64,000 nt of DNA from a bacterium (GTDB lineage Bacteria; Patescibacteriota; Minisyncoccia; Minisyncoccales; GBS-2). Below are positions 6,982 through 60,742 of the stretch, one piece after another (positions within the stretch are counted from its first letter, which is position 1; each line of letters opens with the position of its first letter). The position numbers and the translations under genes are program-made. Where the stretch lies: NCBI GenBank assembly GCA_036803205.1, contig DAIRUS010000001.1, positions 20,290 through 84,289 of the forward strand, in the 5' to 3' direction. Below the pieces are notes generated by a model that was given only the letters and a program-made list of their open reading frames with translations, was not told the origin of the DNA and did no database searches.

Positions 6982-7313
6982 AGATTAATTTTTTTAAAGA
7001 AATTACTAATTATCTCTTTTATTTCCAAAAATTTTTGATTTTCAATTCCGGGAAGGGCAATGAAAATAGCGTCTATTCCTTTTTTAAAACCCTTTATTTC
7101 TCCCCTGACTGCTTCCGTCATTCTCCTTTTAATTTTATTGCGCAAAACCGCCTTTTTGGAAATTTTTTGAGAGACGATAAAGCCAAATCGGCTATAACCT
7201 AAATTATTTGATAGAAACTTAATAATTAAAAACTTTTCTTTAAAACTTTTTCCTTCTTTAAAGATCTTTTCAAAATCTTTTTTCTTTTTCAATCGATTCT
7301 TCTTTGCTAACAT
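6978..7313 (-). CDS. rnpA: ribonuclease P protein component
   Basis: Basic 111-aa protein, LAKKNRLKKKKDFEKIF...RNKIKRRMTEAVR. Located downstream of rpmH. Confidence 0.8.
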   Translation of the reverse strand: MLAKKNRLKKKKDFEKIFKEGKSFKEKFLIIKFLSNNLGYSRFGFIVSQKISKKAVLRNKIKRRMTEAVRGEIKGFKKGIDAIFIALPGIENQKFLEIKEIISNFFKKINL

Positions 7314-7323
7314 TTTTAGGAGC

Positions 7324-7458
7324 TCAAACTGTTAACCGCCAACGACCTTTCTTTTTTCGACGCAGTAAAACTTTCCTTCCACCAGAAGTAAGCTTTCTTT
7401 TTCTGAAGCCGTGAGTTTTTTTTCTTTTTCTCTTTTTCGGACGATAAGTAATTGACAT
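7324..7458 (-). CDS. rpmH: 50S ribosomal protein L34 (44 aa), absent from the ORF track because it is under 60 aa
   Basis: Manual minus-strand translation gives [44 protein letters not shown], then TGA. This is the canonical L34 sequence and C-terminus, upstream of rnpA. Confidence 0.9.
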
Positions 7459-7491
7459 ATCATCTATTTTACTCCGTCAAAATATTTAAGT

Positions 7492-7500
7492 CAATCCACA
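7492..7500. promoter_or_regulatory. weak DnaA-box-like 9-mer (CAATCCACA, 7/9 to TTATCCACA) in the AT-rich rpmH/dnaA divergent intergenic region
   Basis: Direct sequence match. The region 7459-7604 is AT-rich and lies between rpmH and dnaA. Confidence 0.3.
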
Positions 7501-7604
7501 ATTTTTACCCAGTTTATTAACAAAATTTAGCTTTTTGGCTGTCTTTACTTCTTCTTGACTTTATAATATGATATATAAAGTATTCTTAATTTGGGCTCAC
7601 TCAT

Positions 7605-8960
7605 ATGACCAAAGAAGAACTCTGGCAAGCAGTTTTAGCCCAGATTCAACTAACTATTTCTCCGGCTAATTTTGCTACCTGGTTTAAAGACACGGCAATT
7701 GTTTCCCTTCAAGACGGAGTGGCTTTTATCTCTGTTCCAAATTCTTTCGTTAAAGAATGGCTTGAACAAAAATATAACAAAACTATTTTCAAAATTCTTC
7801 ACAGTTTAGATGAAGGAATTAAAGAGATAAAATACGATTTGGGTAAACCCCGACCAAAAATAATTAAAAAAAGTTTTCCCGTCTTGCCAGAAGAAGGTCA
7901 GTTAGAATTTCCCGAATTTAAAGTTGACAAAGAAACAAATCTTAACCCAAGATATACTTTCGATAATTTTATTGTTGGACCGTGTAATGAATTAGCTCAG
8001 GCTGCCGCCTGGGCTGTCTCCCAAAATCCTGGCCAGATTTACAATCCTCTTTTTATTTACGGTGGAGTTGGCTTAGGAAAAACTCATTTGCTCCAAGCAA
8101 TTGGCAATGAAATAGTTAAAAAATTAAATCAAAGAAAAGTTAGATATGTCCAAACAGAAAAATTTATTTCCAATGTCATTTCAGCCATCCGCAACCACCA
8201 AATCGAACAACTTAAGGCACTATATCAACCGATTGACGTTCTTATTATTGATGATATTCAATTTTTAGCCGGAAAAGAAAAAACTCAAGAAGAGTTTTTT
8301 TATATCTTTAATTCTCTCTATGAAAAAAACAAACAAATCGTTCTTTCTTCCGACCGTTCTCCAAAAGCCATTCCAGCTTTAACCGAAAGGCTAAGGTCTC
8401 GGTTTGAAGGAGGAATGATTGCCGATATTACTTTTCCCGATTTTGAAACCAGGATGGCTATTTTAAAAGCAAAGTGTCAAGAAAGAAAAGGTGAATTTTC
8501 CGATGAAATATTAAATTATATTGCCTCAAATATTCAAAGGAATATTAGAAAATTAGAAGGGGCTTTAAACATTTTACTTGCCCACCGAAAACTTCAAGGA
8601 GATTCGCCCAACCTAGAAACAGCCAAGTCATTACTGAAAGACCTCGTCTTATCTCCAGTAAGAGTTATTAATCCAAAAGAAGTCGTCAGGGCAGTGGCTG
8701 ATTTCTATGATTTAAAGGAAAAAGATCTATTTTCTTCCTCTCGAAAAAAAGAAATTGTCAAACCAAGGCAAATAGCTATGTATCTATTAAGGGAAGAATT
8801 AAAAAACTCTTTCCCTTTTATTGGAAGAAAGTTCGGTGGAAAAGACCACACTACCGCCATTCATGCCTATGAAAAAATCTCCAAAGAAATAGAAAAAAAC
8901 GAAAACCTTCGCGAGGAAATTGCCTTAATTAAACAAAGATTTATTAGTGGAGAAATTTAA
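7605..8960 (+). CDS. dnaA: chromosomal replication initiator protein DnaA
   Basis: AAA+ Walker A GGVGLGKTHLLQAIGNE, Walker B LIIDDIQFL, C-terminal DNA-binding domain. 451 aa. Confidence 0.95.
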   Translation: MTKEELWQAVLAQIQLTISPANFATWFKDTAIVSLQDGVAFISVPNSFVKEWLEQKYNKTIFKILHSLDEGIKEIKYDLGKPRPKIIKKSFPVLPEEGQLEFPEFKVDKETNLNPRYTFDNFIVGPCNELAQAAAWAVSQNPGQIYNPLFIYGGVGLGKTHLLQAIGNEIVKKLNQRKVRYVQTEKFISNVISAIRNHQIEQLKALYQPIDVLIIDDIQFLAGKEKTQEEFFYIFNSLYEKNKQIVLSSDRSPKAIPALTERLRSRFEGGMIADITFPDFETRMAILKAKCQERKGEFSDEILNYIASNIQRNIRKLEGALNILLAHRKLQGDSPNLETAKSLLKDLVLSPVRVINPKEVVRAVADFYDLKEKDLFSSSRKKEIVKPRQIAMYLLREELKNSFPFIGRKFGGKDHTTAIHAYEKISKEIEKNENLREEIALIKQRFISGEI

Positions 8961-9010
8961 AAAAAACAGTGGAAAAAAAGGGTAAAAATATTGGCCGCAA
9001 ATTTCCTAAC

Positions 9011-9043
9011 TTATCAACACTTAATTTCCTTAATTTATCCACA
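9011..9043. promoter_or_regulatory. two DnaA boxes in the dnaA-dnaN intergenic region, candidate oriC element
   Basis: TTATCAACA at 9011-9019 and perfect consensus TTATCCACA at 9035-9043, in the same orientation, within the AT-rich spacer 8961-9108. Confidence 0.7.
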
Positions 9044-9108
9044 CTTTTGTTGGTGTTAAAACAACGTATTTCTCTTAATTTTGTCAAAAACAACAACAAT
9101 TAAACTAT

Positions 9109-10233
9109 ATGAAATTAACAATTCTAAAAGATGTAATGAAAAAAGGTATAGAGGTTGTCGAAAAAATAACTCAAAAAAATCTTACGCTACCTATTCTTCA
9201 AACAACCATTTTTCAAACAGAAAAAAATTTTTTAACTCTCTCATCTACTAATTTAGAAACAGGAGTTATTTGGTGGGGTTTAGCCAGGATAGAAAAAGAA
9301 GGAAAAATTTGTCTACCAACCAAAGTTTTATCTCAACTTATTAGTTTTGTACCGCAAAAATCTATCTCTTTATTTAAAGAAAACTTATCTCTCTGGGTTG
9401 AATGCGAAAATTATAAAACCGAGATTATCGGATTAGACGCGGAAGAATTTCCAATTATTCCAAAAATTCAAACTGAAAATTCCATTTTGGTTGATACCTC
9501 TCTTTTTTGTCAATCTCTTTCTCAAGTTGTTAAAATTCCTTCTCCTTCTACTGCTCGACCGGAAATTTCCGGAGTTCTTTTGAATTTTCAAGAAAATATA
9601 ATCAAAATTGCCGCCACTGATAGTTTCCGTTTAGCCGAGAAAAAATTGTTTTTACCAAACCCTTTTCCTCAAAAACACTCTTTGATTTTACCCCAGAATT
9701 CAGTTAGAGAAATAATTGGCATTTTTGGAGAGTTGGAAGGAGAAATGCGAATTTATATTTCTCCAAAACAAATATGGTTTGAGTCTCTAATGTCGGAAAT
9801 TTCCCACCCTCAAATTCAGTATACTTCTCGTTTGATTGAAGGGGAATATCCAAATTACGAAGAAATTACTCCTAAAAAATTTGGAACCACTGTTTCTCTC
9901 TCAAAAGAGAAATTATTGAACCAGATTAAAACCGCCAGTCTTTTCAGTGGTAAAAACAATGAAATCATAATGAAAATTGACCCAAAAAATGAAACGATAA
10001 CAATCTTAAGTCAAAGTCCTAATTTAGGAAAATACGAAGGTTCTCTTGCCGGAAAGATTAAAGGAGAAAAAGTAGAAATTGCTTTTAACCACCGTTTTTT
10101 AATAGATGGAATTTTAGAAATAAAAAGTCCGGAATTAACCCTTAATCTAACTAATGAAGAAGGTCCAGCCGTTTTAAGACCAGTTGATCTGGAAGATTAT
10201 TTCTATATTCTAATGCCGATTAAAACTATTTAA
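9109..10233 (+). CDS. dnaN: DNA polymerase III beta sliding clamp
   Basis: 374 aa with three-domain clamp architecture, immediately downstream of dnaA. N-terminus MKLTILKDVMKKGIEVVEKI is typical of DnaN. Confidence 0.85.
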   Translation: MKLTILKDVMKKGIEVVEKITQKNLTLPILQTTIFQTEKNFLTLSSTNLETGVIWWGLARIEKEGKICLPTKVLSQLISFVPQKSISLFKENLSLWVECENYKTEIIGLDAEEFPIIPKIQTENSILVDTSLFCQSLSQVVKIPSPSTARPEISGVLLNFQENIIKIAATDSFRLAEKKLFLPNPFPQKHSLILPQNSVREIIGIFGELEGEMRIYISPKQIWFESLMSEISHPQIQYTSRLIEGEYPNYEEITPKKFGTTVSLSKEKLLNQIKTASLFSGKNNEIIMKIDPKNETITILSQSPNLGKYEGSLAGKIKGEKVEIAFNHRFLIDGILEIKSPELTLNLTNEEGPAVLRPVDLEDYFYILMPIKTI

Positions 10234-14876: not shown

Positions 14877-15965
14877 TTAATCTATTTTTCTTCGGTAATC
14901 AAATTTCTTTTTGAGAAGTAGAATTGTTAATCCAGAGAAAGCAGCAGTGGTTAGAGCGGGAAGAAAAACAAAAAGAAATTTTGACATTTTTTCTTTTAAA
15001 TCTTCTTGTCCAAAAGGGGTAATGACTGTTGCCAGCTCTTTTTTGTCCGATTCTATTTTTAGAAAAGCCAACTCAGGGTCAACCCAGGCCAATCCTTGTT
15101 TTTTAATTTCTTCCAGTTTCCTTTCTCCAAGTCCTTTTACTCGGGTTAACTCATCTAAAGAGTGAAATGGTCTGGCGCTGATTATTCTTTGAGCCAATAC
15201 TTTACCGATGCCGACTAGCTTCTGGAGTTCTTTTGCCGAGGCAGTGTTTATATCTATTTTGAGAGGTTCGACTATATTCGGGTTAACGGTTGTTTTCGAG
15301 GGGATGAATTGTTCTTGGGGGCGGGATGTTTCCTCGTTAGGTTGAAGAGGCTCTACCTTAGACTCTGATTGGGATTTTTCTTGGAATGATTGAGAAGGAG
15401 GGGTTAATTCAAAATCATTAGCATTATTATTTGTATCCTGATAAAGTCCGGCTATTTTTTTTCTTTCTAATTTTTGATTAGGGCCAGGATTTTCCGGAAA
15501 AGAGTTTCCTTCAAAAAGAAGGTTGTCGAAATCGCCCCAGCCAACAGCGTCAATAATTCGACCGGTGTTTTCTTGCCCCAATCTTAAAGCCACGCCATTA
15601 TTTGGAGCAATAGTTTGGGAGGTTGAAGTCTCGACATTGGAGAGAGCTGTATAATCTTTATTTGTCCAGAGATAATATCCTTTGGCCGGAATTTTAGCGT
15701 TTGGTTCTTTTGACCAGGATTTGATAGTATAATCTTTAGCGCTAGTTTTTGTCCTTTTGACCAATCTGATATAGCTGCCTTGATAATTCCCAAGATAGAT
15801 ATCAGAGTTAGTAGGATTGTAAATTTTTATAAAATCGTCAGAAGTTTTTTCTCCGGCAATTTGAACTTCAACAATTAAAAGCTCGGTGGCTAAAGCTAAT
15901 TTTAGAGGAATTAAAGAGATAAATCCCACCGTTAAGAAAACGTTTATTCTTGACAAATTTCTCAT
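14877..15965 (-). CDS. ComEA-like helix-hairpin-helix DNA-binding protein fused to an N-terminal lamin-tail (LTD) domain, with a C-terminal TM helix
   Basis: HhH pair INTASAKELQKLVGIGKVLAQRI...LTRVKGLGERKLEEIK. LTD-like LLIVEVQIAGEKTSDDFIKIYNP...GYYLW. N-terminal signal/TM and C-terminal hydrophobic tail. Confidence 0.65.
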   Translation of the reverse strand: MRNLSRINVFLTVGFISLIPLKLALATELLIVEVQIAGEKTSDDFIKIYNPTNSDIYLGNYQGSYIRLVKRTKTSAKDYTIKSWSKEPNAKIPAKGYYLWTNKDYTALSNVETSTSQTIAPNNGVALRLGQENTGRIIDAVGWGDFDNLLFEGNSFPENPGPNQKLERKKIAGLYQDTNNNANDFELTPPSQSFQEKSQSESKVEPLQPNEETSRPQEQFIPSKTTVNPNIVEPLKIDINTASAKELQKLVGIGKVLAQRIISARPFHSLDELTRVKGLGERKLEEIKKQGLAWVDPELAFLKIESDKKELATVITPFGQEDLKEKMSKFLFVFLPALTTAAFSGLTILLLKKKFDYRRKID

Positions 15966-16107
15966 AATCTGTTAATATAAGGATTATCCCGGAACCAAGC
16001 CTGGAATTTCTTTCAATTCGGACAACCTGGAGAAGTTCTGGGTTGCTCCTTGAAGAAATTCTGACTTAAGCAGCAAGCTTTTGGCCCCTTTGGTTCCGGG
16101 ATATTTT

Positions 16108-17406
16108 TTATTCAGCAGTCACCCTTTCTATTTCCTCGAAAGTTGTTTTTCCTTCTAAAACTTTAATATATCCATCGAGATGCATTTCGACCATTCCTTT
16201 TTTTATTGCCAGCTCCTTCAAATCGACAATTGAAGGGTTGGTTAAAATAAACCTTTCCATCTCGTCATCGACAACAAAGACTTCAAAAATACCCATCCTT
16301 CCTTTGTAACCGGTAAAATTACAACTTCGACAACCCTTAGTCACAGGAACTTTCATCCATGACCTTAGCTCTTTGACTTTCACGTTTTTAGGAAGACCCT
16401 TAAATGCCTCTTGTAATTTAGTCAAGCGTTCAGACGAAATTAGCTGGAATTGGACGCATTCTTTGCAGACCTTTCTGACTAACCTTTGACCAATAACTAA
16501 ATTTAAGGCGGGAGCGATATTACTTAGTTTTTCTCCTAAAGATTGTAAGCGAGCGACCGTGCCAGCGGCATCATTGGTATGCACGGTGGTAAGGACCAAA
16601 TGACCGGTTAAGGCTGCTTGGAAAGAGATTTGAGCGGTTTCAGAATCGCGGATTTCTCCGACTAAAATAACATCTGGGTCTTGTCTGACAACCGCTCTTA
16701 GGGCATTAGCGAAAGTGTAGCCTTTTGATTCGTCAACTTGACTCTGAGAAACTCCTTTTAAGTGATATTCGATGGGGTCCTCGATAGTGATGATTTTAAT
16801 TTCTGGAGAAGTTAGTTTTTGAAGAAAAGCATAAAGGGTGGTGGTTTTTCCTGAACCAGTCGGACCAGTACAGATAATCATTCCGGTGGGTTTTTTTAGT
16901 TCCTCATAAAAAACTTTCAGCATATCTTCTCTTAAATCAAGGTCTTCCATGCTCACTACCCACTTTGGGTTTAGAATTCTCATTACTATTGCTTCTCCAT
17001 ATTCAGAGGGGAGAGAGGAGGTTCTGATTTCAATCGAGGTATCTTCAATTAAAAGAGAAAAACGACCATCTTGAGGCCGGTTGGTTATATTGAGTTTTAA
17101 ACCGGAGAGAAGTTTCAAACGGGAAAGCAAAGCTTGATAAACAGCAAGGTCTAACAATAAAACATCATGCAAAACTCCGTCAATTCGGATGCGTAAAAGA
17201 ACATTTTCTTTTTTTGGCTCTAGATGGATATCGGAAGCGTCAAGGTAGAGAGTGCCGATTAGGAGGATTTCAACTAAGCCGGTTATTTCTCCGGAGAGAA
17301 GTCTTTCAATTTCTTTCTTGAAATCTAAGATACATTTTATTTTTTCTTTGGCGACCAAAGTTTTTTCCGGTGAAATTTTGACTTGGCCGGTGAGTTTTTC
17401 TCTCAT
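16108..17406 (-). CDS. type II/IV secretion-family ATPase (PilB/GspE/ComGA-like)
   Basis: Walker A ICTGPTGSGKTTTLYAF. Asp box, His box and C-terminal tetracysteine (CKEC...CRSC) typical of PilB/GspE. Adjacent to ComEA-like. Confidence 0.8.
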   Translation of the reverse strand: MREKLTGQVKISPEKTLVAKEKIKCILDFKKEIERLLSGEITGLVEILLIGTLYLDASDIHLEPKKENVLLRIRIDGVLHDVLLLDLAVYQALLSRLKLLSGLKLNITNRPQDGRFSLLIEDTSIEIRTSSLPSEYGEAIVMRILNPKWVVSMEDLDLREDMLKVFYEELKKPTGMIICTGPTGSGKTTTLYAFLQKLTSPEIKIITIEDPIEYHLKGVSQSQVDESKGYTFANALRAVVRQDPDVILVGEIRDSETAQISFQAALTGHLVLTTVHTNDAAGTVARLQSLGEKLSNIAPALNLVIGQRLVRKVCKECVQFQLISSERLTKLQEAFKGLPKNVKVKELRSWMKVPVTKGCRSCNFTGYKGRMGIFEVFVVDDEMERFILTNPSIVDLKELAIKKGMVEMHLDGYIKVLEGKTTFEEIERVTAE

Positions 17407-28135: not shown

Positions 28136-28218
28136 TCTTGAATAGTTAAAGAAGCTTCATATTAAAGGCGTAAAACAGCGAAAAAGATGAAGTGTTTTAG
28201 GGATACGCCTTGATGACT

Positions 28219-29109
28219 ATGCCAGAATTACCAGAGGTTGAAACTACTGTTTTAGATTTAAAGGCAAAGATCCTGAAGAGGACCTTTGTTGACGTTTGGA
28301 CGGATTCAAAAAATTTAATTAAAAAACCAGAAAGCTTTGAGAAATTTAAAAAAGAAATTAAAGGAAAAAAAATTAAAAACATTTGGCGCCGGGGAAAGAA
28401 TATTATTTTTGAGTTGAGACAAACCGGAGTGAGACCAAAACTTTTTTTATTAATCCACCAAAAAATGACCGGGCATTTGCTTTTGGGAAAATGGAAATTA
28501 GAAAGAGAGAGATGGCAGGCAAAAAATCCCGGCCCCTTGGCTGAAGATCCGATGAATAGATTTTTGCATCTGATATTTTGGTTAAACGATGGTCAAATGC
28601 TAGCTCTTTCTGATTTAAGGAAATTTGCCAAAGCAGAATTATTAGATGAAAAAGATTTAGAAAAGGAACTAAGTGCTTTGGGTCCAGAACCTTTGGAAAA
28701 AGATTTTACTTTTGAAAAATTTAGAAAGTGTTTGGCTAAAAAAAAGAAAGGAAAAATAAAACAAGTTTTAATGGATCAAAAAGTTATTGCTGGAATCGGC
28801 AATATTTATTCTGATGAAATTTTATGGGAGGCAAGGGTGCATCCCTTTAAAGAGATTAGACAATTGGACAAAGAGGAAATGAAGAAAATTTATCAGGCGA
28901 CAAAAAAAATCTTACTAAAAGCAGTTGAGTTAGGTGGCGAATCAATTTCTGATTACCGAAAACCTTCCGGAGAAAAAGGAGGTTTTGATCCTTTAAGAAA
29001 GGTTTATCGTCGAGAAGGTGAAAAATGTTCTCTCTGTGGAGTTATTATTAAAAGAACAAAACTAGCCGGGAGATCAGCTCATTTTTGTCCCCAGTGCCAA
29101 AAACTATGA
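28219..29109 (+). CDS. mutM: formamidopyrimidine-DNA glycosylase (Fpg/MutM)
   Basis: N-terminus MPELPEVETT (catalytic Pro2/Glu3). H2TH domain. C-terminal zinc finger CSLCG...CPQCQK. Start placed at MPELPEV. Confidence 0.85.
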   Translation: MPELPEVETTVLDLKAKILKRTFVDVWTDSKNLIKKPESFEKFKKEIKGKKIKNIWRRGKNIIFELRQTGVRPKLFLLIHQKMTGHLLLGKWKLERERWQAKNPGPLAEDPMNRFLHLIFWLNDGQMLALSDLRKFAKAELLDEKDLEKELSALGPEPLEKDFTFEKFRKCLAKKKKGKIKQVLMDQKVIAGIGNIYSDEILWEARVHPFKEIRQLDKEEMKKIYQATKKILLKAVELGGESISDYRKPSGEKGGFDPLRKVYRREGEKCSLCGVIIKRTKLAGRSAHFCPQCQKL

Positions 29110-41631: not shown

Positions 41632-42063
41632 ATGGAGAAATATGAAATTTTAGAACATAGGGCAGATCTAAAAATCAGGATTTTTGGTAAAACCAAAAAA
41701 GAATTATTTCAGAATGCCCTTTTAGGAATGAGTGAAAGTATGAAGGCCGAAATTGAAAGCCCGGCAGAAAAAGTAAAAAGAAAAGTTAGAATAGAATCGT
41801 TTGATTTGCCTTCTTTATTGGTTGATTTTTTAAGCGAGATTCTTTATTTGAGTCAGGTTAATAAAGAGGTCTATTTTGAGGTGAAGTTTAAAAAATTTTT
41901 TGTTCCGTTAACAAGCTCAAGACAGGCTGAAATAGAGTGTGAACTAATCGGTCAAAAAGTAGAGAGATTCGGCAAAGACATAAAGGCGGTGACTTATCAC
42001 GATTTGGACATTCGTCAGAGAAAAAATAAAACCTGGCAGGCAACAGTGCTTTTTGATATATAA
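41632..42063 (+). CDS. archease (RtcB activator)
   Basis: YEILEHRADLKIRIFGKTKKELFQNALLGM matches the archease N-terminus (consensus recalled: [30 protein letters not shown]). 143 aa, upstream of rtcB. Confidence 0.75.
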   Translation: MEKYEILEHRADLKIRIFGKTKKELFQNALLGMSESMKAEIESPAEKVKRKVRIESFDLPSLLVDFLSEILYLSQVNKEVYFEVKFKKFFVPLTSSRQAEIECELIGQKVERFGKDIKAVTYHDLDIRQRKNKTWQATVLFDI

Positions 42064-42192
42064 GTTGGTTTTTAGGTTTAATTTTTTCAATCTCTATTGA
42101 TTTGACTTTCCCACAGGAATACCACAAGATTTTTTAATTGGGCTAGATAAGAAAGCCTTTTCTTTTTAGAAAACTTAAGCTAAAATGGGAAT

Positions 42193-43641
42193 ATGATTTC
42201 AAAAAAAGATTTTAGAAAAATTTCAGAGTTTCTTTGGGAAATTCCAAAAACTTTTAGGGCAAATATGCGAGTTCCGGCAAGAATTTATGTTTCTGAAAAG
42301 ATGTTAGAAGAAGTATTTCGAGATCAATCGATTCCTCAATTAATCAATGGCACCACCCTTCCGGGAATAGTAAAATATGGCATTGCCATGCCTGACTGCC
42401 ATGAAGGATATAGTGTGCCTATCGGATTTGTTGGGGCATTAAGAGTTTCTGACGGAATTATTTCTCCTGGAGCAGCAGGGTTTGATTTGAATTGTGGAAT
42501 GAAACTTTTAAAATCGGAATTATCAGAAAAAGATATAAAGCCATATTTAGAGAAGCTGGCAACAGAAATTCAGAAAGAAGTACCTTCGGGACTTGGCCGA
42601 GGAGGACAAATAAAACTTTCTTTTGAGGAGATTAATAAAATTTTAGAGGGCGGAGCTCAAAAGATGGTCCAACAAGGTTTTGGCGAGAAAGAAGATATAG
42701 AAAATTGTGAATCTCATGGAAGATTAAACTGGGCCGACGCCTCAACTGTTTCTTCGCGAGCTAAAAATCGAGGAAGGGACCAGTTGGGAACCTTGGGAAG
42801 CGGAAATCATTTCCTCGAAATTCAAAAGGTGGCTGAGGTTTTTGATGAGAAAACAGCCGAAGCTTTTGGATTGTTTAAAGACCAAATTGTAACGATGATT
42901 CATACCGGTTCGCGCGGGCTCGGACATCAGGTTTGTACTGATTATTTAAGGGAATTTATTCCGGTAATGGAAAAAAAGTATAAAATCAATGTTCCTGATA
43001 GAGAATTTGCCTGTGTACCATTCAATTCGCCAGAGGGTCGAAGGTATTTTTCAGCTATGGCCTCGGCCGCCAATTATGCCTGGGCTAATCGCCAAATGAT
43101 CGCCCACTTTATTAGAAAAGCCTGGAAGTCAGTTTTGGGTGAGAAAGACAGTTATTTGGTGGCTCTTTATGATGTTGCTCACAATATTATTAAAAAGGAA
43201 AAATATATTATTGATGGTAAAGAAATTGAAGTGATTGTTCATCGTAAAGGATCCACCCGGGCTTTTCCTCCGGGCCACCCGGAAATCCCTGAAAGATATC
43301 GAAATGTCGGTCAACCAGTTTTAATTCCCGGCTCAATGGGAACTGCCTCTTACGTTCTAGTTGGAACCAGAGAAGGAGAGGAAGCTTTTTTCTCGACTTG
43401 TCATGGCGGAGGTCGGACAATGTCTCGACACGAAGCCATGAGACGAGTTTCTGGAAAAGAAGTAGTAAAAAGTTTAGAATCAAAAGGAATTATTGTTAAG
43501 TGCCGGTCTTTGAGGGGTATTGCCGAAGAGGCGCCCCTAGCATATAAAAACATTGATGAGGTAGTAGAGATAGTCCATAATGCTGGTCTATCAAAAAAAG
43601 TAGCAAAATTGATGCCATTGGCAGTAATTAAGGGAGAATAA
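42193..43641 (+). CDS. rtcB: RNA-splicing ligase RtcB
   Basis: RtcB motifs DLNCGM, GSGNHF, HRKGSTRA, plus C-terminal His/Cys metal ligands. 482 aa. Confidence 0.85.
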   Translation: MISKKDFRKISEFLWEIPKTFRANMRVPARIYVSEKMLEEVFRDQSIPQLINGTTLPGIVKYGIAMPDCHEGYSVPIGFVGALRVSDGIISPGAAGFDLNCGMKLLKSELSEKDIKPYLEKLATEIQKEVPSGLGRGGQIKLSFEEINKILEGGAQKMVQQGFGEKEDIENCESHGRLNWADASTVSSRAKNRGRDQLGTLGSGNHFLEIQKVAEVFDEKTAEAFGLFKDQIVTMIHTGSRGLGHQVCTDYLREFIPVMEKKYKINVPDREFACVPFNSPEGRRYFSAMASAANYAWANRQMIAHFIRKAWKSVLGEKDSYLVALYDVAHNIIKKEKYIIDGKEIEVIVHRKGSTRAFPPGHPEIPERYRNVGQPVLIPGSMGTASYVLVGTREGEEAFFSTCHGGGRTMSRHEAMRRVSGKEVVKSLESKGIIVKCRSLRGIAEEAPLAYKNIDEVVEIVHNAGLSKKVAKLMPLAVIKGE

Positions 43642-48364: not shown

Positions 48365-48919
48365 ATGCTAAAAAAAGAAGCGTTAGAAAAATTAAATCAA
48401 AAAATTAGAAGTTGCCGAAAATGTCTTTTATGGAGAAAAAGAAAAAATGTTGTCCCGGGAGAAGGATCTGTTGATGGGAAATTAATGTTGATAGCTCAGG
48501 CGCCAGGTATTGAGGAAGATAAATTAGGCGGTCCCTTTGTGGGGCGAGCCGGCAAACTTTTAAATCATTTGTTAAAATTAACCGGCATTAAAAGAGAAAA
48601 AGTTTTTATTACTTCTTGTTTAAAATGTCTTCCCCAACCACCGATAAATAGAAAGCCCAAAAAAGAAGAAATTGAAAACTGCTTGCCTTATTTAAAAAAA
48701 CAAATTGAAATCATCAATCCCAAAAGATTTATTTTATTAGGCGAGGTTGCTTTTTCGGTATTTTTCCCAAATAAAAAGTTAAAAGATTTTCGAGGAAGAT
48801 GGATTAAAAAAGAGGACAAAGAATTTTTTGTTACCTACCATCCGGCGGCTGGTCTTCGCTTTCCGAAAATCAAAAAAATTTTGGAAAAAGATTTTAGAAA
48901 ATTTGTTTCTGGCCATTAA
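48365..48919 (+). CDS. uracil-DNA glycosylase, family 4
   Basis: SCRKCLLWRKRKNVVPGEGSVDGKLMLIAQAPGIEEDKLGGPFVGRAGKLL, the family-4 UDG signature (GEGP/GE.PG..ED..G.PF.G.AG). Confidence 0.8.
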   Translation: MLKKEALEKLNQKIRSCRKCLLWRKRKNVVPGEGSVDGKLMLIAQAPGIEEDKLGGPFVGRAGKLLNHLLKLTGIKREKVFITSCLKCLPQPPINRKPKKEEIENCLPYLKKQIEIINPKRFILLGEVAFSVFFPNKKLKDFRGRWIKKEDKEFFVTYHPAAGLRFPKIKKILEKDFRKFVSGH

Positions 48920-51508: not shown

Positions 51509-53128
51509 TCACAGTCTTTTTGTCATGTAAGTATTTTTAAGTTTGTATCCCAATTTTCTAAAATATTCTCTTGCCCCGGTACTAGAAATTGCTACCATTT
51601 TTTTTAAGCCAAATTCTTTTTTAGTGATTTTTTCTGCTTCTTTGATTAATTTTTTTCCCAGACCCTGATGTTGGGGAGCGATTTTTTTGACTCCGATTGG
51701 CACTGACTGGCCAAAAGTTTTAATTTCTCGGATTATTGCCGACTCTTTTAATATCGGCAGAACCGATAAAAGCCGGGTTTCTCTTGAAACAAAAGAGGGG
51801 AGGCGAAGACGGATGAGGCTATAAAGCTTTGTTCTATTTTTATTTTCAAAACTGAGAAAAATTTCCTTTCCGCCAGAAGCCTCATAATCCAGGCGGAAAA
51901 AAGACAGCCTTTCTTTTGGGTCATAATTTTCTTTTACTTCTCGACACCTGATGCATTTACATTGCCATTTTTCTTTTTTTATCTCTTTAGCCAAAATTTG
52001 TCGGATGTTAGAAATTTTTGCTCCACCAGCAATGATTTTTTGAGATGGGATATCTCTAGCAATTCTTTGGATTCTGACATAATAAGGAATTTTCTTTTTG
52101 ATTTTTTTTATAAGCTTGAATAAAGTTTTTTTAGAATAAGGCTTATATTTCCCAGTTTGCCACCACTGATAGAGCGGCGCTTCTTTTAATAAAGCGCAGG
52201 GATAGATTTTTAAATAATCTGGCTGAAAATCAGGATTTTGAAATAATTCCTCAAACATTTTTTCATCTTTTTTTACATTGGAGCCCGGCAAATTCGGCAT
52301 TATTTGATACAAAACCTTAAAACCGGCATCTTTTAAAAATTTGGTTGCCAAAATTGTTTCTTTTACGCCGTGTCCTCGTAAATTTAATTTTAAAACATCA
52401 TCATAAATCGACTGAACCCCCAATTCAACCATAGTTATTCCTAATTTCCTCAACCATAAAATTTCTTTTTCGTTTATAAAATCAGGCCTAGTTTCAATAG
52501 ATAATCCAACAATTCTATGCCTTGCCTTTTCATTTAATTTTTGCGCCCTCTCTAATTCCTGTAAAACAAATGCCATGGCATTTATTTTACAGTTGGATGG
52601 ATTTTTGTTGTTGCAGGCTTGGAAACACCTTTTAATAAACCAGGCTTGATATTTTTTGGGATAATAACTCCAGGTTCCACCGACTATTCTCAATTCAATT
52701 TTATCAGTGGGATGTCCTTCATTTTCTAGCGTTTCAATTCTTTTTTTCACTTGTAGATAAGGGTCGTAATTTAATCTTTTTGCCCTTTCGACGGCTGGCT
52801 CTCCAGAAAGATAGCTTTTGGGAATACCTTTTTCAATTGGACAATAAAGACATTTGCCAGGACAGAGATAGGGCTTGGTTAAAACCGAGACATTAACAAT
52901 TCCAGAAAGAGAACGAATTGGTCGCGTTTTAAGTAACCTTTCAATTCTTTCAGATTTTTTAATTCTTTTCTTTCTGAGTAATTTCTGATAAACTCTTAAT
53001 AGCTCGATATTGCTTGGGCAAGAGATTTTATATTTTTTTGTTACTTCTCTCTTTAAAAAATCCAAATCAACCTCATTTTTTATTCGGCTTTTAATTAATT
53101 CGCTGATTACAAGTTCATTAACATTCAT
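51509..53128 (-). CDS. elp3: Elp3-type radical-SAM/GNAT protein (tRNA wobble-uridine carboxymethyl modification enzyme homolog)
   Basis: Radical-SAM cysteine cluster LCPGKCLYCP. Elp3-like core. C-terminal GNAT motif QHQGLGKKLIKEAEKI. 539 aa. Confidence 0.75.
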   Translation of the reverse strand: MNVNELVISELIKSRIKNEVDLDFLKREVTKKYKISCPSNIELLRVYQKLLRKKRIKKSERIERLLKTRPIRSLSGIVNVSVLTKPYLCPGKCLYCPIEKGIPKSYLSGEPAVERAKRLNYDPYLQVKKRIETLENEGHPTDKIELRIVGGTWSYYPKKYQAWFIKRCFQACNNKNPSNCKINAMAFVLQELERAQKLNEKARHRIVGLSIETRPDFINEKEILWLRKLGITMVELGVQSIYDDVLKLNLRGHGVKETILATKFLKDAGFKVLYQIMPNLPGSNVKKDEKMFEELFQNPDFQPDYLKIYPCALLKEAPLYQWWQTGKYKPYSKKTLFKLIKKIKKKIPYYVRIQRIARDIPSQKIIAGGAKISNIRQILAKEIKKEKWQCKCIRCREVKENYDPKERLSFFRLDYEASGGKEIFLSFENKNRTKLYSLIRLRLPSFVSRETRLLSVLPILKESAIIREIKTFGQSVPIGVKKIAPQHQGLGKKLIKEAEKITKKEFGLKKMVAISSTGAREYFRKLGYKLKNTYMTKRL

Positions 53129-55597: not shown

Positions 55598-56860
55598 ATG
55601 GTTTTTATTACTGATTTTCATATCCACTCGAAATATTCTAGAGCTACTAGTAAAGATATGAACCTGGAGAATCTTGATAAGTGGGCAAGAATCAAAGGCA
55701 TTAAGGTTTTAGGGACAGGAGATTTTACTCATCCTCAATGGCTAAAAGAATTAAAAGAAAAATTGGAACCGGCCGAAGTCGGACTTCTTAAGTTAAAATT
55801 CAATCAGCAATCAGTGCGTTTTATTCTAACCACTGAAGTTAGCTGTGTTTATTCCAAAAAAGGAAAAGTTAGAAAAATTCATATTGTAATTTTCGCCCCT
55901 TCTTTTGAAAGCGTTGACAAAATTAACGCCCATTTGAGTTGGATTGGCAATCTCAAAGCTGATGGCCGACCAATTTTAGGATTAGATGTCAAAGAATTAG
56001 CTAAAGTTGTTTTAAACATCTCTCCAGACTGTTTTATTGTTCCAGCTCATATTTGGACCCCTCACTTTAGTTTATTTGGCTCGCGTTCCGGTTTTGATTC
56101 AATAGAAGAGAGTTTTGAAGAGTATTCGAAATATGTTTTTGCTGGCGAAACCGGCTTAAGCTCAAATCCGGCCATGAATTGGCGGTGGTCAGCCTTAGAT
56201 AAAATTACTTTAATCTCAAATAGCGATAGCCATTCGCCATCGCGTATTGGCCGAGAAGCTAATGTTTTTGAGGGCGAAGAAATAAACTACAATTCTATTA
56301 TTGGAGCGATAAAACACAGAGGTTCAACCTTTGCCAATTTAAAATTGATTTATACGATTGAATTTTTTCCCGAAGAAGGAAAATATCATTATGACGGTCA
56401 CCGGCTTTGCGGAATTTCTTTATCTCCAAAAGAAACCAAAAAGTATAATGAAATCTGCCCGGTTTGTGGTCGACCTTTAACAATCGGAGTTTTAAATCGG
56501 ATTGAACAATTAGCTGATCGACCGGAAGGTTTTAAACCAGAAGGCGCCATTCCTTTCAAAAGTTTAATCCCTCTCGAAGAAATCATTGCCGATGCCATAT
56601 CGCAGAGCCGGGGGACAGTTGAAGTAGAAAAAGAATACAAAAGTTTAATAGAAAAATTTGGCTCGGAATTTGAGGTTTTAATTAATACTAAAAGAGAAGA
56701 TTTAGAAAAAGCTACCTTGCCAGAGATCGCCGAAGGAATAATCAGGGTCAGAGAAGGGAGAGTGAAGATTGAACCTGGCTATGATGGGGTTTATGGAAAA
56801 GTTAACCTTTTTTCTCAGAGAGAGCAAAAATTAACTTCTCGCCAAAAGACCTTGTTTTAA
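55598..56860 (+). CDS. endonuclease Q-like protein (PHP domain + C-terminal zinc finger)
   Basis: MVFITDFHIHSKYSRATSKDM (compare archaeal EndoQ DLHIHSRYSRATS, from memory). PHP-type His/Asp ligands. CPVCGRPLTIGVLNRIEQLADR zinc-finger region. 420 aa. Confidence 0.6.
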   Translation: MVFITDFHIHSKYSRATSKDMNLENLDKWARIKGIKVLGTGDFTHPQWLKELKEKLEPAEVGLLKLKFNQQSVRFILTTEVSCVYSKKGKVRKIHIVIFAPSFESVDKINAHLSWIGNLKADGRPILGLDVKELAKVVLNISPDCFIVPAHIWTPHFSLFGSRSGFDSIEESFEEYSKYVFAGETGLSSNPAMNWRWSALDKITLISNSDSHSPSRIGREANVFEGEEINYNSIIGAIKHRGSTFANLKLIYTIEFFPEEGKYHYDGHRLCGISLSPKETKKYNEICPVCGRPLTIGVLNRIEQLADRPEGFKPEGAIPFKSLIPLEEIIADAISQSRGTVEVEKEYKSLIEKFGSEFEVLINTKREDLEKATLPEIAEGIIRVREGRVKIEPGYDGVYGKVNLFSQREQKLTSRQKTLF

Positions 56861-56863
56861 TTT

Positions 56864-57742
56864 ATGAAAGTGGGTATACCAAGAGCTTTAATTTATTGGA
56901 AAAGACCCTATTTCTGGGAGAATTTTTTTGAAAATTTAGGACTTGAGGTCTTACTTTCGCCAATGACAAATAAAGAAATTATTGAGACGGGAGTGAAGAC
57001 TTCTGACCCGGAAAATTGTTTTTCCAATAAGGTTTATTGGGGACATTTGTTGTGGCTTGAGGGAAAATGTAATTTTATTTTTGTTCCGAGATTAAAGACA
57101 AACGAAGAGAAGTTAGAATACTGTCCGAAATTTTTTGGGATTCCAGACTTGGCAAAAATTTTGGTTAAAACCCCAATTTTAACCGAAATTTTTGACGAAA
57201 GAAAAGAAAAATTTGAGAAAACCCTTGAAAAATTAGGGCAGAAATTAAAGAAAACCAAAAAGGAGGTAAAAGAAGCGTTAGAAAAAACTCTTTTGAGAGA
57301 AAAAGAAGCGAAAGAAAAAGAGCGCAAAAAATTTTTTGAAAAAATTAGTTCCAAAAAGAAAAAAATTATTTTGATTTCCCACCCCTATAATTTATATGAT
57401 GAATATATTAATCTAAAAATGGGAGAAAGGTTGCAAAAATTGGGATCTGAGGTAATATTTATAGACGAAATTCCCGCTAATAAATTACAAGCTGAATGGC
57501 CAAAGTTTCACTGGGAATTTGGTAAAGAAATAATGGAGAAAATTGATGAGATTTTGAAGCACGAAATTTCTGGGGCAATCCAAATTTCTTCTTTTGCCTG
57601 TGGTTGCGATGCTGTCCTGAAAGAATTTGTTGAAAAAAGAGTCAAAGAAGCCAAAGTCCCATTCTTATACCTAATCATTGATGAACACACCGGCGAAGCC
57701 GGTTTTCAGACAAGGTTAGAAGCCTTTGTTGATACAATATGA
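56864..57742 (+). CDS. CoA-substrate-specific-enzyme-activase-associated domain protein (DUF2229 / 2-hydroxyacyl-CoA-dehydratase-like), part 1
   Basis: Ends ...SSFACGCDAVLKEF...HTGEAGFQTRLEAFVDTI, paralogous to the next gene's C-terminus (EQVAEAGINTRLEAFVD). Family assignment from memory. Confidence 0.45.
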   Translation: MKVGIPRALIYWKRPYFWENFFENLGLEVLLSPMTNKEIIETGVKTSDPENCFSNKVYWGHLLWLEGKCNFIFVPRLKTNEEKLEYCPKFFGIPDLAKILVKTPILTEIFDERKEKFEKTLEKLGQKLKKTKKEVKEALEKTLLREKEAKEKERKKFFEKISSKKKKIILISHPYNLYDEYINLKMGERLQKLGSEVIFIDEIPANKLQAEWPKFHWEFGKEIMEKIDEILKHEISGAIQISSFACGCDAVLKEFVEKRVKEAKVPFLYLIIDEHTGEAGFQTRLEAFVDTI

Positions 57743-58809
57743 TACCAATTGTTACTTTTGCTAGATGGGGCAATTATACAATTGCTTTTAAAACCCTATT
57801 TGAACAACTAGGGGTAAAAGTTATTTCTCCAGAAAAGACAACTTCTCAAACGATTACTGAAGGAGCAAAAATTGCACCGGAGATGTATTGCTTTCCTTTG
57901 AAAGTTAATTTAGGGAATTATTTAGAGGCAATCAGGAAAGGAGCCAACACTATTTTTATGGCTACCGCCTTGAGTGGTTCTTGTCGTTTGAGGTATTATG
58001 GTATAGTTCAGGATAAGGTTTTGAGAGAGGCTGGTTATCAACCAAACTTTATCATTTTCGATCAAAACCTCAAAGACATCTACTTTAAACTAAAAAAAAT
58101 TTCTAAAGCTTCCTTCTGGCAAATTTTAAAGGCGGCAAAATTTTGTCTTAGAAAGCTAAGGCTTGTTGAGAAATTAGAAAAAAAGGCTCAATATATAAGA
58201 CCGAGAGAGATTGAAAAAGGAGCAATTGATAGATTGCTGAATGAAGCTTTTTTAAAGCTCGAGAAGATAAATAAAGAAAAAGATTTTTCAAATTTTCAAA
58301 AAGAGATTTTCAAAAAAGTTTCAGAAATTAGAATAGATAAAGATAGGGACGTGCCGAAAGTAGGTTTGATTGGAGAAATTTATACAGTTTGTGATCCGAT
58401 AGTAAATTTTGAGGTTGAAAAGAAATTAGGCCAAAAAGGCTTTGAGGTTCATCGTGAAATGGACTTAACTTATCACCTAAAGAAAAAAATTTTTCTCTGG
58501 AAAGATTGGATAATCCAAAAAGAAATAAATCCCTATTTACGTTCCACGGTTGGTGGTCATGGTCGAGATGCCATTTACGAAATGCTAAAATATACGAAAG
58601 AAGGTTTTGATGGAATAATTCATCTATTGCCGGCTATGTGTATGCCAGAGGTAACCGTTAGGCCAATTTTAGAAAAAATTCACCAAGAATCGGGCATCCC
58701 ATTTTTGTCGCTTTCATTAGATGAACAAGTGGCTGAGGCCGGAATTAATACCCGGCTTGAAGCTTTTGTTGATGTCGTTGAAAATTACTATGCAAGAAAA
58801 AAAGCTTAA
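57739..58809 (+). CDS. CoA-substrate-specific-enzyme-activase-associated domain protein (DUF2229/HGD-D-like), part 2
   Basis: Cys-containing SGSCRLRYYG, LLPAMCMPEV. C-terminal AEAGINTRLEAFVD. ATGA overlap with the previous gene. Confidence 0.45.
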   Translation: MIPIVTFARWGNYTIAFKTLFEQLGVKVISPEKTTSQTITEGAKIAPEMYCFPLKVNLGNYLEAIRKGANTIFMATALSGSCRLRYYGIVQDKVLREAGYQPNFIIFDQNLKDIYFKLKKISKASFWQILKAAKFCLRKLRLVEKLEKKAQYIRPREIEKGAIDRLLNEAFLKLEKINKEKDFSNFQKEIFKKVSEIRIDKDRDVPKVGLIGEIYTVCDPIVNFEVEKKLGQKGFEVHREMDLTYHLKKKIFLWKDWIIQKEINPYLRSTVGGHGRDAIYEMLKYTKEGFDGIIHLLPAMCMPEVTVRPILEKIHQESGIPFLSLSLDEQVAEAGINTRLEAFVDVVENYYARKKA

Positions 58810-59770
58810 AACTTATTTGGGAATTGATGTGGGCTCCTTGACCATAAAGATTGTTCTGATTAACAAAGAAAATCAGGTTTTATATTCAACTTATGAAAGG
58901 ACGGGCGGAAGACCGATTGAAGCTATTCAAAATGGCTTGAAAGCTTTAAAAAATTGGATTTTAAACCACAATCCAGAAATTGAAATTTGTGGAGTGGGAA
59001 CTACTGGTTCGGCCAGATATTTGGCGGGAGTAATTATTGGCGCTGACTTAATCAAAAACGAAATTACTGCCCATGCTAGAGGAGTAACCAGTTTTCTTCC
59101 TGCTGTCAAAACAGTGATTGAAATTGGTGGCCAGGATTCAAAAATTATCATTTTGGAAAATGGCACAGTTGTAGATTTTGCTTTAAATTTAGTTTGTGCC
59201 GCTGGTTGCGGCTCTTTTCTTGATGCACAGGCGTTTCGACTAGGAATTCCAGTGAAGATGTTTGGCGAATTGGCTTTGAAATCAAAAAATCCCACCACCC
59301 TAGGTAGTCGTTGTACAGTATTTTGCGAATCAGACATGATTCACAAACAACAAATTGGCCATAAAACCGAAGATATTATAGCTGGACTTTGTCAGGGATT
59401 GGCAAGGAACTTTTTATCTAATGTTGCTAGAGGTAAAAAGATTTTGCCACCAATTGTTTTTTTGGGAGGAGTTTCAGAAAATGTGGGAATGAGAAAAGCG
59501 TTTGAAGAAGCTTTAGGCCAAAAAATTATTGTCCCCTCCTATAATACGGTGATGGGGGCATTCGGAGTAGCTTTGTTGGTTAAGGAAAATCCTCCTCAAG
59601 AAACAAAATTTTTAGGTTTTGAAATTTCTGACAAAGATATAAGATGTACTTCCTTTCAATGCCAGGGATGTCCCAATCGCTGCGAAGTAATTGAAGCCAG
59701 AATTGAAGAAAAAATTATTGCCCGTTGGGGAGATCGTTGCGGAAAGTGGTCGAATCTAACTTCCACTTAA
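58790..59770 (+). CDS. BadF/BadG/BcrA/BcrD-type ATPase (CoA-substrate-specific enzyme activase, HgdC-like)
   Basis: LGIDVGSLTIKIVL (ASKHA phosphate-1). GVGTTGSAR. IGGQDSK. Cluster-bridging cysteines CAAGCGSFLD. C-terminal CxxC..C. Start placed at MQEKKLKTY. Confidence 0.7.
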   Translation: MQEKKLKTYLGIDVGSLTIKIVLINKENQVLYSTYERTGGRPIEAIQNGLKALKNWILNHNPEIEICGVGTTGSARYLAGVIIGADLIKNEITAHARGVTSFLPAVKTVIEIGGQDSKIIILENGTVVDFALNLVCAAGCGSFLDAQAFRLGIPVKMFGELALKSKNPTTLGSRCTVFCESDMIHKQQIGHKTEDIIAGLCQGLARNFLSNVARGKKILPPIVFLGGVSENVGMRKAFEEALGQKIIVPSYNTVMGAFGVALLVKENPPQETKFLGFEISDKDIRCTSFQCQGCPNRCEVIEARIEEKIIARWGDRCGKWSNLTST

Positions 59771-59852
59771 CCACCCAACACTGCCTATTTATTATTGCGA
59801 TCGCAATAATTGTGAGGCAGTAAAAATCTTATTAAGGCTTTATAAGGTTTAT

Positions 59853-60368
59853 ATGGAGGTTTTAGAAGTTATTAAAAATCGCCGGAGTATTCGGAAATTT
59901 GAAAAAAAAGAAATCCCAATAGAGGTTTTTGATAAATTAGCTGAATCTTTAATTTGGGCACCGAGCGCGGGTAATCTCCAATCGAGGAAATTTTATTTTA
60001 TTTTTAATCAGGAAATTAAAGAAAAATTAGCTGAGGCTGCTTTGAACCAAGATTTTATTGCTCAAGCCCCTTTAGTGATTGTTGGTTGCGCTGACGATAA
60101 AATCGTTTTTAGATATGGAGAGCGGGGGAAAAATCTTTATTCAATTTGTGACGTTTCGGCTTCAATTGAGAATATGATGATTTTGGCTACCGAATTTGGT
60201 TTGGGCAGTTGTTGGGTTGGTGCTTTTGATGAAAAAGAAGTGGCGAAAATTTTAAATTTACCAGAAAATTTAAGACCGGTGGTCATCTGTCCTATTGGCT
60301 ACCCCGCCGAGAAACCTTCGGCTCCTCCGCGGGTCTCAAAAAAAGAGGCAGTAAATCTCATTAAATAA
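59853..60368 (+). CDS. nitroreductase family protein
   Basis: VIKNRRSIRKFEKKEIPIEV...APSAGNLQ nitroreductase signature. 171 aa. Confidence 0.8.
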   Translation: MEVLEVIKNRRSIRKFEKKEIPIEVFDKLAESLIWAPSAGNLQSRKFYFIFNQEIKEKLAEAALNQDFIAQAPLVIVGCADDKIVFRYGERGKNLYSICDVSASIENMMILATEFGLGSCWVGAFDEKEVAKILNLPENLRPVVICPIGYPAEKPSAPPRVSKKEAVNLIK

Positions 60369-60379
60369 AATCTTTTTCT

Positions 60380-60742
60380 ATGATTGAAGAGTATTATTTT
60401 GGTTTAATTACTATTGATGGGAAAACTTACAATCACGATATTGAGGTCCGTTGGACGGGGGAAGTTTTGAAATGGCAGAGAGCTGAAAGTCATGTGATTG
60501 ATGTTGAAGATGTAAAACGAGCAGTTGAGCAGAATCCAGAAACGATTATTATTGGAACCGGTGAAGGAGGGGTGGCCAAGGTGACTGAAGGGGCTCAAAA
60601 ATTTATCAAGGAAAAAGGGATTGAGTTAATTATTGATTTGACCGAGCAGGCAATCAAAACCTTCAACATTAGAAAAGAAGAATCAAAAGAAGGGGAAGGC
60701 AGAGAAGAAAGGGTAATCGGTCTCTTTCATTTGACATGTTAA
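60380..60742 (+). CDS. Mth938-like domain protein (DUF498)
   Basis: GLITIDGKTYNHDIEV...TIIIGTGEGGVAKVTEGAQKFIKEKGIELIIDLTEQAIKTFN matches the Mth938 pattern (from memory). Confidence 0.55.
   Translation: MIEEYYFGLITIDGKTYNHDIEVRWTGEVLKWQRAESHVIDVEDVKRAVEQNPETIIIGTGEGGVAKVTEGAQKFIKEKGIELIIDLTEQAIKTFNIRKEESKEGEGREERVIGLFHLTC

Follow-up and report, generated by a model that had tools for sequence, protein, structure and literature searches.

The 64,000-nucleotide stretch analysed here (the window; contig DAIRUS010000001.1 of assembly GCA_036803205.1, positions 20,290 to 84,289) belongs to a member of the Patescibacteria, or Candidate Phyla Radiation (CPR), with its nearest named homologs in Candidatus Paceibacterales, Nealsonbacteria and Parcubacteria. 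We have focussed on four consecutive genes of its + strand, a gene for an EndoQ-family nuclease (ORF1, 55598-56860) and, directly behind it, a module of three genes that we call Red1 (ORF2, 56864-57742), Red2 (ORF3, 57739-58809) and Act (ORF4, 58790-59770). Judging from the sequence comparisons described below, Red1, Red2 and Act are a split, colinear homolog of the fused giant proteins annotated as "CoA-substrate-specific enzyme activase". We give about an even chance to the reading that they represent a split member of the branch formed by PlsA/PlsR and Ger within the superfamily of radical enzymes that includes the benzoyl-CoA reductases (BCR) and the 2-hydroxyacyl-CoA dehydratases (HAD), and that they would produce ether lipids or plasmalogens from scavenged phospholipids.

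The initial annotation of this DNA had proposed two paralogous proteins resembling DUF2229 and HGD-D together with a BcrAD/BadFG-type ATPase, and the profile searches returned precisely these families. Red1 (292 aa) matches PF09989 (DUF2229) at 2.8e-46 along model positions 1-217 of 218, and Red2 (356 aa), whose position is equivalent to that of PlsR, matches the same family at 8.7e-16 and PF06050 (HGD-D) at 2e-07. The PF06050 matches are confined to the last ~60 residues of both proteins (225-292 in Red1, 287-345 in Red2), and NCBIfam contains no model for either of them. The two are paralogs with 26% identity (E=3e-17). The common C-terminal tail, initially given as T/NTRLEAFVD, is indeed found in both, although the residue that precedes TRLEAFVD is Q in Red1 and N in Red2, never T, and in Red2 the protein continues for 11 more residues after the motif. 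Act (326 aa) is an HgdC/HadI-type ATPase that matches PF01869 (BcrAD/BadFG) at 4.4e-48 and TIGR00241, "acyl-CoA dehydratase activase", with 194.8 bits; it carries the motif CAAGCGSFLD and finds MbdQ (3.8e-42), HgdC (1.3e-35) and also HadI among the solved structures of the PDB.

The fused comparators were found by a search with a Red1-Red2 fusion and the window proteins were then mapped onto them. These comparators are fused and half-fused PlsA-type proteins, not the characterised PlsA, PlsR or Ger sequences, and those of ~1390 aa come from Desulfobacterota, the phylum of the characterised Ger of D. alkenivorans. In the fully fused proteins (P0398, P0397 and P0344, 1327-1431 aa) the domains follow the order Act1, Act2, Red1, Red2. 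The window Act aligns to Act2 over its full length, including the C-terminal tail, with 45-48% identity. Red1 can likewise be aligned from end to end with its counterpart in fused proteins, at 27-31% identity (E 1e-25 to 1e-43), and Red2 aligns to the Red2 part of fused proteins with 20-26%. In the fully fused P0398, P0397 and P0344 the identities are 28-31% for Red1 and 20-23% for Red2, and the E-values range from 1e-62 to 1e-95 for Act, from 1e-34 to 1e-43 for Red1 and from 1e-13 to 1e-22 for Red2. This gene-order comparison bears out the homology to fused giants of Firmicutes and Thermotogae that had been suggested at the outset, and the complete domain set of PlsA/PlsR/Ger is present, that is, PF01869 plus two PF09989 modules, each with a PF06050 tail.

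Split and fused forms are joined by an unbroken series of fusion states: three separate genes, Red1-Red2 proteins of ~730 aa, Act-Red1-Red2 proteins of ~1050-1090 aa, Act1-Act2-Red1 proteins of ~1015-1070 aa (which we take to be of the type of C. perfringens PlsA), and the full fusion. Separate genes in the same Red1-Red2-Act order are also found in Monoglobus pectinilyticus, a member of the Clostridia, so that the split form is not peculiar to reduced genomes. The cysteines predicted to bind iron-sulphur clusters are invariant or nearly so across split, half-fused and fused forms. They are C52, C87 and C246 in Red1 (which also conserves H61), C51, C82 and C301 in Red2, and, in Act, C136 and C175, which in activators of the HgdC type hold the bridging cluster. 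Furthermore, Act ends in a Cys-rich tail, F-x-C-x2-C-x-N-x-C...C (C291, C294, C298, C317), which is found in the split Acts and in Act2 and is absent from Act1.

The relatives of known function place this family in lipid metabolism. Jackson et al. (2021), as cited in later papers, identified the anaerobic plasmalogen synthase with the plsA-plsR operon of C. perfringens. In E. faecalis, Lactococcus and Bifidobacterium, a single gene encodes the synthase. The Ger proteins of T. maritima and D. alkenivorans are glycerol ester reductases that give 1-alkyl ethers and have the architecture B-B-D-H-D-D-H. Both PlsA/PlsR and Ger convert the sn-1 ester of finished diacyl lipids into a vinyl or alkyl ether, and only under anoxic conditions. 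The initial annotation had described the fused giants as enzymes of unknown substrate, which is outdated, as they correspond to PlsA/PlsR and Ger and act on membrane glycerolipids and not on CoA esters; therefore, a reduced genome is no argument against the known chemistry.

PlsA/PlsR (CPE1194/1195, Q8XL48/Q8XL47 in C. perfringens; Q835P9 in E. faecalis) has the same activase and the same two DUF2229/HGD-D-tail modules, with Red1 before Red2, and is itself already partly split, since PlsR of C. perfringens is a stand-alone Red2. The window proteins agree in their invariant cysteines and in the Act2-type tail with the PlsA-type fused and half-fused proteins of our comparison, as distinct from the characterised sequences. 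The difference is that in the window the parts are three genes, with the activase last and single instead of a tandem Act1-Act2. Ger (Tmari_0479/AGL49404; SHJ90043) belongs to the same family and follows the same architectural logic; it is oxygen-sensitive and works on finished lipids, but it is one polypeptide of ~1400 aa with two activase domains. The published survey of Ger required at least 30% query coverage, and stand-alone subunits of 290-360 aa fall below this, so split forms were probably left uncounted there.

We picture the reaction in the following way. In a homodimer of Act, C136 and C175 of both chains would together hold one [4Fe-4S] cluster. The dimer would accept an electron from a donor of low potential and, as ATP is hydrolysed, hand it on to a Red1/Red2 heterodimer, on which it would dock, probably by means of the Cys-rich Act2-type tail. 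Each Red subunit would carry one [4Fe-4S] cluster held by three cysteines, and the reduced pair would then reduce and dehydrate the sn-1 acyl ester of a ready-made glycerophospholipid, yielding a 1-alk-1'-enyl (plasmalogen) or a 1-alkyl ether lipid. Homology, ligands and fold give good support to the ATP-driven electron-injection machinery. The subunit stoichiometry, the path of the electrons and, most of all, the lipid as substrate are put forward by analogy, the last because we found no DUF2229 enzymes of known function other than PlsA/PlsR and Ger. A lipid substrate would suit CPR bacteria well, because the PlsA/Ger chemistry works on finished diacyl lipids and these bacteria have been described as devoid of lipid synthesis. 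Homologs of Ger have also been reported in DPANN archaea, which likewise rely on partner cells for their lipids.

The names given to these proteins in databases imply something else, a classical 2-hydroxyacyl-CoA dehydratase, or an enzyme of the benzoyl-CoA-reductase or double-cubane cluster protein (DCCP) type, with its activator. HgdAB/HgdC, HadBC/HadI, BzdNOPQ, MbdONPQ and DCCP/DCCP-R all have in common that electrons are injected at the expense of ATP by an ASKHA ATPase, a homodimer bridged by a [4Fe-4S] cluster, and the strong matches of Act to HgdC, HadI and MbdQ, like the PF06050 match of the tails, are what would be found for such an enzyme. The fold of the catalytic subunit is also common to them. 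The AlphaFold2 model of Red2 (pLDDT 88.3, pTM 0.87) retrieved with Foldseek only BCR, HAD and DCCP catalytic subunits among its top 20 matches (BzdNO, DCCP, HadBC and MbdON, E 3e-9 to 2e-5), the next match being at E=3e-2. However, these matches have TM values of 0.42-0.60 at 11-16% identity, and by sequence the solved HAD and DCCP subunits resemble Red1 and Red2, as PF06050 does, in the C-terminal ~60 residues only, the body of both proteins being DUF2229 with a long helical insertion. The six-cysteine [8Fe-9S] site of the double-cubane proteins is replaced by three invariant cysteines per Red subunit. Moreover, there are no genes for CoA-ester or amino-acid fermentation among the scanned open reading frames (ORFs) of the window, in agreement with the initial annotation, which had considered a 2-hydroxyacyl-CoA pathway implausible in so reduced a genome. 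We therefore regard a classical enzyme of these types as very improbable.

More serious is the alternative in which the machinery is the same and the substrate another one, so that the split Red1/Red2/Act would use ATP to reduce or dehydrate, at low potential, a compound that is not a lipid or some other carbonyl or ester compound, which would be a further substrate class of the BCR/HAD superfamily. Several observations weigh against a role in ether-lipid formation and most of them favour this alternative. Besides the low identity of Red2 to the fused forms, none of the nearest Red2 representatives exceeds 770 aa among the top 150, and the nearest ones from outside the CPR are uncharacterised stand-alone or Red1-Red2 proteins. 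The tandem activase ("BB"), reported as conserved in all confirmed producers of alkyl ethers, is represented by one Act gene of the Act2 type, although an Act homodimer, as in HgdC and HadI, could take the place of the Act1-Act2 tandem. Subunit sets vary, as Red1 was not detected within ~10 kb of Red2 in L036, L038 and L041 (loci of our survey, described below), where Act is usually present. No lipid or ferredoxin gene was found among 40 further ORFs of the window and the immediate neighbours of the cluster, and in other genomes the module adjoins housekeeping genes of no evident relation to it, which give no hint of a pathway. The lipids of the CPR-enriched 0.1-um fraction from Crystal Geyser, the source of several of the genomes that carry the module, were acylglycerol lipids only. 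Finally, according to the literature, alkyl and alkenyl products cannot be distinguished by sequence.

Against a different substrate, all the DUF2229 proteins of known function in the literature that we found act on the sn-1 ester of glycerolipids, and the window proteins have the colinear domain set, all the ligands and the Act2-type tail of the fused forms, to which the series of fusion states connects them. On balance, it is possible, though clearly less probable than ether-lipid formation, that Red1/Red2/Act acts on a substrate of another kind. To the same extent we entertain the idea that a CPR cassette with 20-31% identity to the fused PlsA/Ger and a single Act2-type activase stands for a new reaction class of the BCR/HAD superfamily.

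Whatever the substrate, these genes appear to be under selection. At E<=1e-5 the homologs of Red2 number more than 1600. Identity to Red2 is 67-77% in the best 120 clusters, which are ~356 aa long; such conservation over more than 100 clusters indicates strong purifying selection at the sequence level. In relatives, inteins interrupt the genes for Act, Red2 and EndoQ, three of the four considered here, at catalytic residues. In Act they sit directly before C136 (L037:11056-13290, L012:3546-5780, L052:11440-13701, L030:11758-13272, L051:11259-13469), in Red2 at C301 (cleanly before it in L045:9995-12016, at about that position in L036:10001-12103), and in one EndoQ (L045:1195-3690) directly after a metal-ligand His. 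All of them have canonical C...HN|C boundaries and some contain LAGLIDADG homing-endonuclease domains. The choice of catalytic residues as insertion points would fit active, selected enzymes.

The proximity of EndoQ to the module raises the question of whether the two work together. They were initially presented as a pair, and one could imagine a single functional system in which, e.g., a lesion in a nucleic acid would be repaired or modified by radical chemistry and then incised. The spacing is indeed tight, with a TAA, a 3-nt gap and an ATG between EndoQ and Red1 and no signal in between. In a genome survey from the Red side, seeded with an alignment of five sequences and hence biased toward close relatives, EndoQ was found immediately upstream in 32 of the 41 evaluable loci of Parcubacteria species representatives, 548 nt away in another one, and not in the remaining 8. 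This adjacency survives where the wider synteny (Elp3, SLOG, EF-Tu-D2, MgtC) is broken, as in the survey loci L023 and L024 and, from a separate look-up, in L006. Elp3-like, SLOG and EF-Tu-domain-2-like mini-protein genes are syntenic with EndoQ in many Parcubacteria.

However, the picture from the EndoQ side is very different, with the module present in only 7 of 71 evaluable loci (drawn from the best 80 relatives of ORF1, at 52-74% identity). In L061 (7989-9637) and L066 (2632-4486) the same upstream genes and EndoQ are followed directly by the DUF498 gene, Red1-Red2-Act being missing; in L065 and L068 EndoQ is followed by a zinc-finger gene, also without the module. Conversely, L009, L010, L030, L040, L042 and L048 have modules without EndoQ, in the vicinity of GyrB, MetRS, ThyX or FtsX, and S-layer genes also occur as neighbours of such distant modules. 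EndoQ moreover has its own tail resembling a clamp-binding motif and a complete nuclease site, and the cluster seems to lie within a longer, mixed operon (see below). An ORF in L050 that appeared to fuse EndoQ to Red1 was rejected, as a masked run of N spans the junction. We therefore find a joint EndoQ-reductase system hardly credible, the least probable of the alternatives considered, and EndoQ and the module are not a functional unit; EndoQ is an independent neighbour that does not depend on it.

The rarity of the module at EndoQ loci (7 of 71) and the empty sites of L061 and L066 show Red1-Red2-Act, with or without a nitroreductase gene, to be a separable cassette, whose three genes come and go together at the site between EndoQ and DUF498 in one lineage of Parcubacteria. 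The nitroreductase is an optional accessory of this cassette, found after Act in L006, L015, L023, L024 and L027 and absent from most other loci. In the window it is encoded at 59853-60368 (+ strand, PF00881 at 1.3e-34), and the DUF498/Mth938-like gene that forms the downstream flank of the cassette site lies at 60380-60742 (+ strand, PF04430 at 4.8e-19). In L010, three DUF2229 genes precede Act. In some relatives, genes for a mevalonate-pathway kinase and decarboxylase, for IspH (LytB) or for the flippase-like LPG_synthase_TM are located a few kb 3' of the module (L003:12870-16895, L004:10832-11698 and 15697-16704, L007:12910-13926), which is possibly a lipid or isoprenoid context.

The four genes had been correctly delimited from the start, with the exception of the start of Act, which is almost certainly at 58790 (giving 326 aa) and not at 58721, in agreement with the gene call on the source contig and with the homologs. 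Translational coupling of the three module genes, also suggested initially, is in keeping with the ATGA overlap between Red1 and Red2 and the 20-nt overlap between Red2 and Act; EndoQ and Red1 are separated by the gap described above. In the 82-nt spacer 3' of Act we read from the sequence an inverted repeat, CTGCCT...AGGCAG (59781-59820, + strand), which lies 11 nt past the stop codon of Act and surrounds a perfect 20-nt palindrome, ATTATTGCGATCGCAATAAT, at 59791-59810. The terminator scan did not call this repeat, a T-run being absent; it could be a terminator that closes the transcription unit, or else a regulatory site or operator. The best promoter-like sites in the promoter scan were 5' of the SLOG gene (53967) and 5' of the zinc-finger gene (60731), and no such site preceded EndoQ among the best ones. 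Both scans perform near background and provide weak context only. Since the best promoter-like sites flank the cluster and none is found 5' of EndoQ, the cluster seems to be located inside a longer, functionally mixed operon that also comprises the SLOG, EF-Tu-D2-like and MgtC genes.

ORF1 itself (420 aa; PHP, Zn-binding and C-terminal helical domains) is a genuine if divergent member of the EndoQ family, with predicted activity as a repair nuclease for deaminated bases and abasic sites, as can be judged because the alignment is full-length and the metal ligands, the essential residues and most of the lesion pocket are kept. Residues 2-404 align to residues 2-382 of PfuEndoQ (5zb8; phmmer against the PDB) with 34% identity (E=1e-48), and residues 7-18 read FHIHSKYSRATS. 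The score for TIGR00375 (NCBIfam) was 178.6 bits, under the trusted cut-off of 326.6, which places ORF1 in what we consider from its sequence a divergent bacterial clade, and PF27218 (MJ0043_C) is annotated for it on the source contig. Projecting the published PfuEndoQ residues (PMC5961232) onto the alignment with 5zb8 and onto alignments of the CPR clade, we found all six metal ligands (H8, H10, E76, H84, H139 and D193, here H8, H10, E80, H95, H151 and D210), which confirms the membership originally proposed, and also the essential R114 and H195 (here R124 and H212). In the lesion pocket T142, E167, G169, L170 and N191 are conserved, with T in place of L168. ORF1 has a His (residue 156) at the position of W144, which has been proposed as the base-stacking wedge and is Trp in all other aligned CPR homologs. 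In the C4 zinc site (C249, C252, C268, C271) the first Cys is changed to His in the window and in all aligned CPR homologs ("GKYHYDGHRxC") and the other three are kept, so an HC3 zinc site is plausible in CPR EndoQ.

The bacterial beta-clamp-binding motif is QL[SD]LF, and archaeal EndoQ binds PCNA through a C-terminal PCNA-interacting (PIP) box. The C-terminus of ORF1 (window 56843-56860) is Q-K-T-L-F, and Q-x-T-L-F is also the terminus of the EndoQ of L006, L012, L019, L023, L034, L039, L051 and L058, with L029 (Q-G-I-L-L) as the sole exception. By its resemblance to the clamp motif, this tail is probably the counterpart of the archaeal PIP box and serves for recruitment by the beta-clamp. 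ORF1 is therefore similar to PfuEndoQ (5ZB8, 7K30) and to the bacterial EndoQ of Bacillus pumilus and B. subtilis in its three domains, catalytic residues, most of the pocket and a C-terminal interaction tail, and differs from PfuEndoQ in its distant sequence, the zinc-site and wedge substitutions, and a tail that is beta-clamp-like instead of a PCNA PIP box. EndoQ had been initially characterised as mostly archaeal. This fails for metagenomes, in which 562 of the first 599 pattern matches of a scan with family-wide EndoQ motifs were relatives of ORF1; EndoQ is common in CPR bacteria, and there it is probably tethered to the clamp.

EndoQ is one of three separate base-damage repair enzymes in these 64 kb of a very small genome, the others being Fpg (28210-29109) and a glycosylase of the uracil-DNA glycosylase (UDG) superfamily (48365-48919). 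UDG and EndoQ are redundant for uracil, a situation reported for Methanosarcina. Further repair genes of the window are RuvC, UvrB and a 5'-3' exonuclease, and its remaining content includes YidC, Jag, DnaA, DnaN, pilus and type IV secretion system-like genes, a penicillin-binding protein, sensor kinases, and an RtcB RNA ligase paired with archease (41632-43641). An Elp3-like radical-SAM/acetyltransferase gene is found at 51509-53128. The region 5747-10233, with a jag/khpB-like gene, yidC, dnaA (7605-8960) and dnaN (9109-10233), is probably the chromosomal origin region, and the cumulative GC-skew has its minimum at ~10-12 kb, adjoining these genes.

The families described here are known and the split proteins already carry generic annotations in databases. 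What appears unreported in the searchable literature is that the PlsA/Ger family also occurs as three fully separate genes with one activase, in a cassette that is found widely and with strong conservation among Parcubacteria, and that EndoQ is common in CPR bacteria; searches that included DUF2229, EndoQ in CPR and plasmalogens in Patescibacteria brought up nothing about either the split form or CPR.

The membrane lipids of CPR bacteria, or Patescibacteria, are believed to come from their hosts, which raises the question of how these lipids are tailored. Enzymes of the PlsA/Ger type act on finished diacyl lipids and could thus be used by a lipid scavenger. The cassette may be the first lipid-remodelling enzyme of the CPR, turning stolen ester lipids into ether lipids. 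If this is true, the formation of ether lipids or plasmalogens would be added to the biology of these organisms, a fully split enzyme with a single activase would be functional, and bacterial ether-lipid biomarkers in anoxic settings would have more possible sources. If the ether-lipid reading is false, the cassette would indicate new chemistry in the BCR/HAD family of radical enzymes.

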